A stretch of DNA of 64,000 bases from Parachlamydiales bacterium (GCA_963765145.1 CAVXVG010000001.1:1-64000); one strand, 5' to 3'; positions 28,929-35,741 are shown, counted from the stretch's first letter. Numbers and translations: made by a program. Notes: a model not told the origin generated them from the letters alone.

Positions 28929-29112
28929 GAAAGGCTATTAGTTACACTAGTTTTCCTCCTAAAAAGAAAACACCGCTTTTTGGAAAGTAATTTTACTTTC
29001 AAGCAAGAGTGATGTCAAAGTAAATCTTAAATAGCCCAATCAACATCTGATAATCCTCATGTTTTGTTTAAAATTTACCTTGACACCCATATCCTTATTA
29101 TGCTAATTATAA
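28929..29112. repeat. Copy A of a ~185-bp promoter module (direct repeat of 34557-34741)
   Basis: Shared blocks CTCCTAAAAAGAAAA, ATTTTACTTTCAAG, GATGTCAAAGTAAATCTTAAA, TCTGATAATC and ATATCCTTAT. Confidence 0.9.
28990..29018 (-). promoter_or_regulatory. Sigma70/sigma66-type promoter TTGACA-N17-TAAAAT
   Basis: Consensus -35, 17-bp spacer, near-consensus -10; conserved in both repeat copies. Confidence 0.75.
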
Positions 29113-29157
29113 CCCTTCTTAGGGGGTGTTGAATAACTTGTGAGAGAAATCCATTGC

Positions 29158-30219
29158 CTAGGCACGTGATAATTCCATCAAAAATGAGGGTTCAGCTATC
29201 TTTTCCTTAAGAAAATGTTGCACATTGTGAGTAGTTGTCATGTCGGTTATTACAATTGTCTGGATGTGCAATAAACTCAAAATAGAACTAAAGAAATCGC
29301 AGAGTTCCAGATTATCGAATAGAATATATGACGGTAAATAATGGCTTTTCTCTAACGAAAAGATAAGCCTTTCGGTTAAAATTGCAACTGCTCCATCTTC
29401 GGGTTTAATAATATCTATCCCCATGATCATTTGAGAATTTCTATCGACGATGAGAGCGGCTTGCAGCCAATATGGACGTTCTCGGTCATGGATGGTAGCT
29501 GGTCCTGTGAAGATGCTTACTTCCCAAGCCATATCTTTATCTTGTTGTTTTGCTTGGAGCGATTGGATTTTTTCTTGGCTAACCCAACATATTTCTTCTT
29601 CTTGAGGAAGTTTTTCAGGAATATTCCATGTTGTACTCCAGCTTGAGCTTGGAGTATCTACTTGCGGTAAATAAAGTAAATATTCTCCGGCTCTAGAAGG
29701 CTTAAGAAAAAGAGGATTTTCTTTACTTTTTTTAATGTGTTCGATTGCTGCTTGCAATACAAAAATGAAAGACTTTACTTCTTCTTCATTTAAGTACCAG
29801 CTTTGATATCCTGGTACGTAACTTCTAAATTGGGCATATCGATGCCGCTCTTTTGACCCAAAGCCAATCCTTTTGAGTATCGTGCGATCTTCTTTATCGA
29901 GCTCTTCTATATGACAAAACTCCAATACAAGTGCGTTATACGTAGAGCGAATATTAGCGTTATTTGAGCTCATGAGGCTGCTTTTTATTTTCCAATGCAT
30001 CTCGTGGTCAGATTGTCCTCTGTAGGCTAGAAGACCATAAAACTCTCCTATCGCGCCCAAAACACTGCAATATACAAGCTTTTCAGAAATAGGGTCTTGC
30101 ACAGCAAAAATGTGATTTTCATCTAATACAGTCCAAGGGGCGAATTTTTGATACATGGAAGCTTCATCGTAAAGATCTTCCCACATCTGAGTAGAAACAC
30201 TTGGGATAATTGGTTTCAT
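29158..30219 (-). CDS. Conserved hypothetical protein (DUF7309/DUF6930-like, tentative)
   Basis: AGGAGG RBS before ATG 30219; motifs APW, YCSVLG..GE..GL..Y.G, FRSY.PGY..W. Confidence 0.6.
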   Translation of the reverse strand: MKPIIPSVSTQMWEDLYDEASMYQKFAPWTVLDENHIFAVQDPISEKLVYCSVLGAIGEFYGLLAYRGQSDHEMHWKIKSSLMSSNNANIRSTYNALVLEFCHIEELDKEDRTILKRIGFGSKERHRYAQFRSYVPGYQSWYLNEEEVKSFIFVLQAAIEHIKKSKENPLFLKPSRAGEYLLYLPQVDTPSSSWSTTWNIPEKLPQEEEICWVSQEKIQSLQAKQQDKDMAWEVSIFTGPATIHDRERPYWLQAALIVDRNSQMIMGIDIIKPEDGAVAILTERLIFSLEKSHYLPSYILFDNLELCDFFSSILSLLHIQTIVITDMTTTHNVQHFLKEKIAEPSFLMELSRA

Positions 30220-31158
30220 CAAAACCTCCTTAGAGTAATTATCAAAATAATGATCCAGCCTATAGTCTGTGGGAGGTTGAGGATTAAGACGCTTGATATA
30301 GATTTTCAAGCGAACGTATTAGCGATCGTGTTTTTGAATAGAGCTGGCTAAGGAGAATACTTTTCTTGTCTAGAAATTGTCAAGCCAAAGTTAAACACCG
30401 TCAACCGGCTCAAAATAATCCATCAAAATGGTGAACTGGTCCATTACCCTGTCCAATTTAAATGAATACCCGCCTGTCAAATATCCTCCTTTGACAATGA
30501 CGGCTTGAGGTGCCATTTGTGTCAGATCGAGGACAGCTCTTGCTCCGTTTGATCCTTTGTCACAATCTCTCAACCGAAGAGAAGAGTCCAAACGAAATCG
30601 CAAGAATATTGAAACTCAAAGGCCATTTTTATTTTGGTCGATTTCAAACAAATCCATGTCTATCCTCGTCTCATTGATCAAAAGCTCATTATAGAGCCTT
30701 TAATGAAGTTTATTATTTTTCTTCGAATTTTAAGCATATTTTGGTCAGACAAATGACTGAGAACTCTTGACGGTTGCCTGCTGCAGTTAAAGTACATCCG
30801 ATAAGCTAAAAGCAGCAAAATTAAATTTTTGTTGCATTTGATTGCCTGATAATGTTATTCATCAGGCTATCAGCCGGAATTTAAAGCTATCATTGGCCCT
30901 GGAGCCAAACGGGTTTTTCTTGATATACTTAGCAGGGCGCTTTAATATATAGGTAAATATCCTCCTAAGCTGGGAAAACAATAGAAACAACTAAGAGAGA
31001 AATCGTTTGCCTGATATAGAAATAGATCTCAGCTGTCCAATAAAATGGTTTTTGAGTTCAAATTAGTCGCTTTTGTAATCACATTAAATTGAATAAAAAT
31101 AGAAGAAGTGATTTTTATATGACAAATGTATCTTCTTAAAAAGAAGGGGAAGAAACCA

Positions 31159-34576: not shown

Positions 34577-34741
34577 ACTTTTTCTCCTAAAAAGAAAATT
34601 TCAACTTTTGGGTGTTGATTTTACTTTCAAGTGGCAACGATGTCAAAGTAAATCTTAAACAAACCATCAAACGTCTGATAATCTTTTAACTTATATGCAA
34701 AATTTTCCTTGCATTCTATATCCTTATATTGCTACTTATAA
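34557..34741. repeat. Copy B of the promoter module, between the protease and the integrase
   Basis: Aligns with 28929-29112; leftward TTGACA-N17-TAAAAT at 34618-34646. Confidence 0.9.
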
Positions 34742-34745
34742 GGAT

Positions 34746-35741
34746 ATGGAAAGTGAAAAGGCGGGTTTAACGCCGTCTAGCATCAACGTGTTCGGTGCGC
34801 AAAAAATTGAAAGCTTTGAAAAAGCCAAAAAGCTACGCGACGACCTGATTTGGGACCAGCTAGATAAGACAAGCGTCGAAGAAGCAGTTCTTCAGTGGTT
34901 ATCGACGCTCAGTCCTAAAACCCAACTCAATTATCAATCAGGCATGAGAAAGTTGGTGATACTAAATCTTATCGAGCCTACGATGAATTTGCAGGCTTTC
35001 GCCCTTGTTAACCATGATGTTATTATCGATCGGATCAAACTGGTGCCGGAATGGTCTGAATGCAGTCGGCAGGCACGAGCTGCCTGCTATATCTCCTTCA
35101 CCCGTTTCTTAAGCCGACGAACCCAGGGAATGATTTCTAGAGCAATCCCCAATAAAGAAAGTGGAGCTAAAACCTTCTTTAGGGTGTATGAAAAAGTACA
35201 AACGGAAGCAATGACCCAAGCCCAATGGCTAAAATTTTTCGAAGCTTTAGAGGAGCTTAGCCCTCGGGAATGCTTAATAGCTAAAGTTATCCTTCAGGGT
35301 GGAAAGCGTGTGAACGAAGTGCTCTCGTTGAAGATCGAACAGATTGATTTTGACAGAAGAAAGATTGTCTTTGGTCAATCCAAAACCAAGGGTCTTAAAA
35401 AAGAAACAGTGATTACTTACCCGGCAAGCGTTATGGAAAAATTACGCGTCTATATTGGAGAGCGAAAAGAAGGGCATGTTTTTCTATCACGCTTCGGAAA
35501 GCCTATTGACTTAAGATGGCTTGCCGTTGTGTTTGCCAAAGCAGGCAATCAAGCAGGGCTCTCCTTCAAAATCACTCCGCATGTTCTAAGGGCTTCAACT
35601 GTTACTTATTTAAAAGAACAGGGATTCGCTGATAGTGATATCATGAAAATTACAGGACATGCCAATTCAGCAATGGTGCATGCTTACGATAAATCTTCTA
35701 GAGAAAATAATGCGAGCGAGAAAATTCAACTCGTCTCATAG
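34746..35741 (+). CDS. Tyrosine recombinase, chlamydial plasmid integrase (pGP8-D-like)
   Basis: GGKRVNEV (R), QSKTK (K), HVLRAS (HxxR), ITGH, VHAYD (Y). QARAACYISFTRFL is characteristic of pGP8. AAGGA RBS before ATG 34746. Confidence 0.92.
   Translation: MESEKAGLTPSSINVFGAQKIESFEKAKKLRDDLIWDQLDKTSVEEAVLQWLSTLSPKTQLNYQSGMRKLVILNLIEPTMNLQAFALVNHDVIIDRIKLVPEWSECSRQARAACYISFTRFLSRRTQGMISRAIPNKESGAKTFFRVYEKVQTEAMTQAQWLKFFEALEELSPRECLIAKVILQGGKRVNEVLSLKIEQIDFDRRKIVFGQSKTKGLKKETVITYPASVMEKLRVYIGERKEGHVFLSRFGKPIDLRWLAVVFAKAGNQAGLSFKITPHVLRASTVTYLKEQGFADSDIMKITGHANSAMVHAYDKSSRENNASEKIQLVS

Follow-up and report, generated by a model that had tools for sequence, protein, structure and literature searches.

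A conserved palindrome as the likely target of a Pgp8-like integrase in a Parachlamydiales bacterium, with hybrid sites nearby and in relatives

Introduction

Does a promoter module repeated next to an integrase gene mark a gene-capture platform, or a site on which the integrase acts to another end? This question is raised by a stretch of 64,000 nucleotides from a Parachlamydiales bacterium (GCA_963765145.1, CAVXVG010000001.1:1-64000; below, "the window" is this whole stretch), which carries a gene for a Pgp8-like tyrosine recombinase and, adjacent to it, a module (copy B) that recurs at a distance of 5.6 kb (copy A). The first-pass annotation, made from the sequence alone, interpreted this arrangement as a possible integron-like platform bracketing effector cargo. 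We conclude that it is not an integron, and that the right end of the repeat contains a palindrome of two 12-bp arms and a 6-bp spacer, absent from that annotation, which is a likely loxP/dif-like target of the adjacent recombinase, as far as sequence comparison can tell. The explanation that we favor, and consider fairly probable, is that copy B is the resolution site of the plasmid, copy A being a scar of recombination with a partial look-alike beside the gene of a DUF7309 protein.

The Pgp7/8 integrases (OG0000907) are described as a phage-derived family that belongs to the core of chlamydial plasmids and is confined to chlamydiae, and the part of this text available to us names no target site for them (PMC7846284). 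They are believed to resolve plasmid multimers, with Pgp8 needed for maintenance, according to the available portion of one report (bioRxiv 2024.11.14.623704); the accessible part of another describes Pgp8 as dispensable in C. psittaci and its recombination role as speculative (PMC13711795). Iterons are noted, and no palindrome or intergenic site is mentioned, in the available part of PMC7259575. Our literature search, covering partial texts, found no paper naming a Pgp8 site, and older plasmid papers and supplements may mention an inverted repeat. Listings and abstracts retrieved for integron-like systems in chlamydiae contained nothing relevant.

Results

The integrase and its palindrome

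The integrase is 46% identical to Pgp8 of C. muridarum over 313 amino acids (aa; E 3e-99), 40% identical to Pgp7, and 53–59% identical to plasmid integrases of Waddlia, Simkania and Criblamydia (59% for the latter two). The homology to Pgp7/Pgp8 is full-length, and both identity and the tree place the protein in this family, as the first-pass annotation had it. The catalytic set R-K-H-R-H/W-Y is intact, R188, K213, H279, R282, H305 and Y314 being invariant in all seven aligned integrases. Homologs at E ≤ 1e-50 are present in 64 of 401 genomes of the phylum, and a near-identical integrase is encoded on a contig of 3.3 kb. An AlphaFold model of moderate quality (pLDDT 70, pTM 0.51), used for family-level fold matching only, matches XerA, Tn1549 Int, lambda Int, XerH and Cre. 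Integrases of the same family (41–58%) with a matching dyad are also found in records titled Babeliaceae, Babeliales or Dependentiae (L178, L180, L181, L182, L195), one of which is a 1.3-Mb chromosome, although the family is described as confined to chlamydiae; the record titles are taken here as given.

An arm-spacer-arm layout with a short spacer is the geometry of tyrosine-recombinase core sites. The intact dyad of copy B (site B, Table 1) overlaps the start codon of the integrase gene, and its inverted arms around an asymmetric spacer beside the gene correspond to Cre/lox- or dif-like sites (arms of 11–14 bp, spacer of 6–8 bp). Homologs have in common a palindrome with a 6-bp spacer, located immediately ahead of the integrase gene. 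Of 23 large loci, 20 contain a match to TTATAA-N6-TTATAA with at most one mismatch close to the integrase, and, in a wider scan of an overlapping set, a site of this type is present near 31 of 56 full-length loci, compared to 0.015 expected. In a motif-free test (6-bp spacer, at least 9 of 12 arm positions paired, loci dereplicated at 90%, own locus included), 34 of 47 loci pass, these loci being kin rather than independent, compared to 69 of 1880 two-letter shuffles (3.7%). Moreover, the outer six arm bases pair at 4.85 of six positions with their own partner and at 2.64 of six with partners from other loci. The arms change along with the enzyme: between pgp1 and pgp8, the plasmids of C. muridarum, C. 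suis, C. pecorum and C. trachomatis and three others have CCTGATTA-N6-TAATCAGG.

Most relatives have the whole site, and the divergent gene there encodes a small ribbon-helix-helix-like protein (a call made by eye from the alignment, with no Pfam match) beside a terminase/methylase/DUF1064 block; neither this gene nor the terminase/methylase module was found in the assembly studied here. In L095–L111 the block is composed of DUF1064, DNA methylase, terminase large subunit, optionally AbiEi/AbiEii, and the small ribbon-helix-helix-like gene, and is phage-derived, with variable cargo downstream. Chromosome-borne elements among the relatives also keep the site unsplit, and hence a resolution site fits better than attP.

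Two further palindromes were encountered. A "type 2" TTATAA dyad, present 3–7 kb upstream in 6 of 23 relative loci, is located within the methylase gene, and we discarded it as a coding coincidence. A second perfect 11-6-11 palindrome, possibly a terminator or an operator, is conserved near pgp5 in several Chlamydiaceae plasmids (L217:1601, L199:1281, L200:5880, L201:6329).

The repeated module

The direct repeat postulated in the first-pass annotation is real: copy A (28929-29112) and copy B (34557-34741), offset by 5628 bp, align over 185 bases with 74% identity (E 2e-26), with conserved blocks and diverged spacers. No third copy was detected at E < 0.01 across the 2.68-Mb, 37-contig assembly. 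Both copies retain, as had been proposed, a leftward TTGACA-N17-TAAAAT promoter (minus strand, 28990-29018 and 34618-34646), overlapped by the inverted repeat TTTACTTT-N17-AAAGTAAA, and an AGGAG ribosome site; the inverted repeat is exact at these two copies only, with 12 weaker matches elsewhere carrying one or two mismatches. The broken protease N-terminus at copy A was likewise recognized correctly as a stub, which has no start codon and ends in a stop, and no Pgp8-like integrase lies nearby, the assembly holding just one. The unrelated gene of about 930 aa reported behind copy A does exist as an orphan gene, but is assembled as two open reading frames (ORFs), of 53 aa (28725-28886) and 853 aa (26093-28654), in different frames near homopolymer runs; either it is a real pseudogene or the split is an assembly error.

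XerCD dif and pdif sites consist of a XerC arm, 6 bp and a XerD arm (TTATGTTAAAT-like consensus). The TCTGATAATC block, earlier likened to a Xer-type half-site, is conserved; no XerD-like arm is present 6 bp past the TCTGATAA block in either copy, so we reject it as a Xer/dif half-site, and the actual core has two like arms, unlike the XerC/XerD pair. The CTGATAA block of copy B may be an additional half-site, degenerate and directly oriented.

The module was also searched for elsewhere, as the first-pass annotation had called for. A comparison of module B with 400 genomes produced matches in 59 at E ≤ 0.01, of which, beyond the own genome, only that in G121 is convincing (52 bp, E 1e-12); the extended module pattern occurs in one of 129 genomes of the G121 family, and there is no match in PLSDB. 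The integrase loci of relatives contain no duplicated module, only repeats of 23–68 nt.

Table 1. Features of the module, the integrase and the adjacent genes (window coordinates).
Feature	Position	Strand	Remarks
Orphan gene behind promoter A	26093..28886	-	two frames (53 aa + 853 aa), no homolog found
Ribosome site and dead protease N-terminus stub, copy A	28916..28960	-	lacks start codon; stop comes early
Leftward promoter and inverted repeat, copy A	28990..29024	-	
CTGATAA block, copy A	29043..29056	+	
Site A, hybrid core	29089..29118	+	retains left arm, spacer TGCTAA and TTATAA, with foreign outer right arm; 6/12 positions pair
DUF7309/DUF6930 protein gene	29158..30222	-	hybrid site A adjoins its 3' flank, as in L125 and L128
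548-aa protein gene	31159..32805	+	weak, below-cut-off DUF4135 match; low GC; in shared block
109-aa ORF	32809..33138	+	no Pfam family; in block common to L128 (96% DNA)
Trypsin-like serine protease gene, 433 aa	33275..34576	-	Ser/Thr/Pro-rich variable N-terminus in homologs
Sigma-70-type leftward promoter of protease and overlapping TTTACTTT/AAAGTAAA inverted repeat, copy B	34618..34652	-	
Conserved CTGATAA block, copy B	34671..34684	+	43 bp left of left arm; left edge of L125 and G121 similarity
Site B, intact 12-6-12 dyad	34718..34747	+	11/12 arm positions paired; spacer TGCTAC; predicted crossover core
Pgp8-like tyrosine recombinase gene, 331 aa	34746..35741	+	

Hybrid sites and their origin

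Similarity of copy A to copy B ends at 29112, inside the core of site A. A pattern scan of metagenomes yielded 26 loci, two of them homologous (L125 and L128, contigs of one assembly) and 24 unrelated; in viral sequences none of six pattern matches was homologous, and further viral scans were empty. The contig L128 corresponds to window segment 32150-34741 (91%) joined to 28929-30395 (85%), in the order: end of the 548-aa gene, 109-aa gene, protease gene, module, A-side flank, DUF7309 gene. This join of the left part of copy B to the right part of copy A, which followed from the first-pass annotation and is now seen in a relative, is as expected from a circle or from two units in tandem. The similarity of L128 to the window ends at the second copy (30366-30399) of a 34-nt TTGACA-containing motif that is present in inverted orientation at 25968-26001 (82%), and a fragment of an insertion sequence (IS) then follows. 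In L125 an unrelated left flank with an ORF ending in the CTGATAA block is followed by the site, the A-side flank, the DUF7309 gene and the beginning of the 548-aa gene (91%). Copy A, L128 and L125 thus share the left half of the site joined to the 3' flank of the DUF7309 gene, and the opposite hybrid, in which the integrase half adjoins foreign DNA, occurs in G121b (L148) and L149.

The protease, 109-aa and 548-aa genes of L128 are 89–96% identical to those of the window, and its promoter is closer to that of copy A (86%) than to that of copy B (71%). At informative sites L128 is B-like in nine of ten cases near the ribosome site and A-like in 23 of 33 beyond (p 0.018, 500 permutations). This switch in the 5' leader points to a homologous crossover there, not to insertion at the core. 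In L125, the sites preceding the spacer lean weakly towards B (9 vs. 5), and those from the spacer onward are A-like (22 vs. 4), the outcome expected of a crossover in the core.

The latter pattern would also suit a working cassette system, in which the 5.6-kb block circularizes between two sites and is repeatedly reinserted at the site of the integrase, building arrays with double-stranded lox-like sites and an integron-like outcome. The window would then consist of a remnant unit, a unit and the integrase, and the relative, of another flank followed by two units; all four junctions needed for that are indeed seen, namely X/unit (L125), unit/unit (L128), remnant/unit (A) and unit/integrase (B). 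Moreover, the fixed distance of the CTGATAA block recalls the DR1/DR2 accessory sites of TnpI, as outlined in the available part of PMC2847244. Still, a single cargo block is seen instead of diverse cassettes, and the promoter on the integrase side is the one least like that of L128, whereas insertion at the core predicts the opposite. The right arm of site A is degenerate and its spacer differs, so exchange between A and B should be poor now, and a working system sits badly with the lack of both a third copy and duplicated modules in relatives. We find such a system quite unlikely. Its generalization, by which Pgp8-family recombinases would use a lox-like site as a landing pad for circular cargo and build attC-free arrays, the same palindrome being the Pgp8 target on the Chlamydia virulence plasmid, is also rather doubtful.

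The mosaic of L128 agrees, by pointing to homologous recombination, with an ordinary history, that is, a tandem duplication of the promoter and protease region followed by random deletions, with the dyad serving as an autorepression operator and the position of the breakpoint being incidental. Tandem duplications are common on the contig (283-497/2300-2481; 71150-74150/78090-81087), and there is no site in the coding stub where the repeat has its left end. What speaks against this history is the position of breakpoints. We compared 204 pairs from 37 site loci, with low-identity pairs ending near the site being uninformative, and observed that three independent pairs with 85–86% identity lose similarity inside the same 30-bp core, at –12 (L147/L148), –5 (L149/L150) and +9 (B/L128). 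The arm-spacer-arm geometry with its fixed, asymmetric 6-bp spacer is also more in keeping with the core of a tyrosine-recombinase site than with a simple operator, and the enzyme retains all its catalytic residues. Overall, a purely ordinary history seems unlikely.

Yet another possibility is that the end of an IS created the junction to the right of site A. The flank following TTATAA there resembles an IS903-type terminal repeat; A, L125 and L128 all retain this motif, and IS fragments lie nearby in L128. The block, however, has no transposase, a search for a facing partner end found none (its one match, within a gene at 5708, looks unrelated), and the hybrids of G121b and L149 would be left unexplained, making an IS origin very improbable.

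Several observations weigh against the interpretation of copy B as a resolution site and copy A as its recombination scar. One more pair with 86% identity, L159/L171, breaks at +19, outside the core, so that three of the four near-site breaks are within it. Reciprocal halves of the hybrids were searched for and not found; the right junction shared by A, L128 and L125 may be one inherited event, and L125 and L128 are separate short contigs. The mosaic signal in L128 could stem from decay of the copy A stub, and the dyad over the promoter could be an autoregulatory operator only. Finally, 13 of the 47 loci have no dyad in the scanned window; in five of these that were inspected, an intact site lies 1.1–2.7 kb upstream, behind inserted toxin-antitoxin-like genes that are outside the core. 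In L172, L175, L187, L194 and L204 the intact site is separated from the integrase by an inserted zeta-toxin-like pair, in some cases together with more genes.

Given the 12-6-12 dyad over the integrase start and its co-varying arms conserved across the family, we suggest that the enzyme binds both arms and exchanges strands across the 6-bp spacer, which would resolve plasmid multimers, and that it represses its own promoter. The hybrids in A, L128, L125, G121b and L149 would come from recombination with secondary sites sharing TTATAA. The junction between the site and the DUF7309 flank was probably made by site-specific events, with ordinary recombination and deletion doing the rest. The 5.6-kb block, once bracketed by two related modules, could then be moved or amplified; in the window a homologous crossover in the shared 5' leader would be a more probable cause of this than the integrase, and the tandem may have formed by homologous recombination. 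The protease gene behind copy A would have been lost later, leaving the stub. The net effect is probably that cargo is occasionally shuffled at a resolution site, rather than captured in a programmed way behind a promoter.

Comparison with integrons and other systems

The locus resembles integrons in having a tyrosine recombinase gene beside a site, a divergent promoter and accessory genes nearby. It differs from them as follows: there is no IntI and no attC, the promoter is on the wrong, cargo side, there is one cargo block with its own promoters, and relatives lack a duplicated module, and thus the integron-like interpretation fails. The integrase scores 43 bits with the IntI profile TIGR02249, far below the cut-off of 265; aligned as a profile with XerA, it has no insertion, such as the I2 helix of IntI, preceding the HxxR motif, and with IntI4 it aligns over residues 167-232 only. 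A simple motif scan of window positions 25001-38000 on both strands found no RYYYAAC/GTTRRRY core pairs 45–150 bp apart, and the window contains no Rfam match. The leftward promoter, located about 75–110 bp to the left of the core, is directed away from the core and hence would not drive DNA inserted there, and the gene to the right of site A is convergent, pointing against the promoter of the site. There are only two sites, and the 5.6-kb block of the relative L128 (DUF7309, 548-aa, 109-aa and protease genes) has other neighbors and carries the same genes, not new ones. Of the proposed integrase-mediated swapping of genes, one part stands: the repeat holds a likely target, and copy A ends inside it. 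The other part does not, as the junction where the orphan gene replaces the protease gene behind promoter A has no recognizable site.

The closest known systems are the Pgp7/Pgp8 plasmids, which have the same integrase family and the same layout of divergent gene, dyad and integrase as seen at pgp1/pgp8; here, unlike there, the integrase is present in a single copy on a large conjugative plasmid, the arms are CCTTATAA rather than CCTGATTA, and a second, hybrid site lies 5.6 kb off. As in P1 Cre/loxP, XerH/difH and XerA/dif, one tyrosine recombinase of about 330 aa is encoded beside a palindromic core whose spacer is short and asymmetric, in agreement with the fold matches. The geometry of loxP is 13-8-13, unlike the 12-6-12 of the window, identity of the integrase to Cre, XerH and XerA is low (15–22%), and recombination is predicted here from sequence. 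A resolvase role is ascribed to Cre-like plasmid enzymes in the available part of PMC3414803. In Tn4430, an inverted core is cut by TnpI with a 6-bp stagger at the IRS, and directly repeated accessory motifs are bound by the same enzyme (PMC2847244, available part). The locus shares with it the inverted core with a 6-bp spacer and a possible accessory motif; here, there is at most one such candidate motif, in the closest sub-lineage only, and no Tn3-family transposon around it.

Neighboring genes and plasmid setting

The "effector" label of the cargo is unproven. The variable Ser/Thr/Pro-rich N-termini of the protease family are compatible with secretion, judging from the sequences, and the DUF7309/DUF6930 protein shows no sign of an effector. 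No integrase or module was found within 1.5-kb flanks of DUF7309 homologs in seven other genomes, or of protease homologs in three others (25–39% identity). For the 853-aa orphan protein 8000 candidates were scored, only the protein itself matching; Atlas matches were unnamed, with recognition below threshold.

The 85-kb contig C1 very likely is a part of a conjugative chlamydial plasmid, as suggested by its GC content (40%, vs. about 44% in the large contigs), an F-type tra operon, the lack of tRNA genes and a 25-nt palindrome shared with contig C37, which carries parA and pgp6- and pgp2-like genes. The tra operon spans window positions 6595-25210 and comprises traL, E, K, B, C, U, trbC, N, F, H, G and D (Pfam); C37 also has split MobA-like ORFs, as judged by eye. 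The near-perfect 25-nt palindrome occurs four times on C1, at window positions 285 and 2302, before duplicated small modules, and 17293 and 17817, inside the tra operon, as well as just upstream of parA (G000:C37:7935), and nowhere else in the genome; it is a candidate plasmid-wide operator or parS site.

Proteins of C1 are rich in eukaryote-like domains: ankyrin, F-box, U-box, WD40 and TPR-patatin. Among them are a TPR protein with a C-terminal Ntox50 domain, ankyrin/F-box/WD40 proteins, a U-box protein and tandem ankyrin-patatin-TPR paralogs (window 58713-60602, 42926-45928, 60971-63991; L031 3805-17214). A weak match to biotin-protein ligase is found at 41807-42523.

Implications

The failure of the integron interpretation makes the locus less surprising. 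The dyad, in turn, gives the question about the role of Pgp8 a concrete target site, and a conserved dyad of 28–30 bp together with natural hybrid junctions makes the assumed role of Pgp7/8 in resolution directly testable. The Pgp8-like recombinase and its dyad may constitute a new orthogonal recombinase/site pair. For environmental chlamydial plasmids, the hybrid sites suggest one route by which accessory genes may be shuffled.

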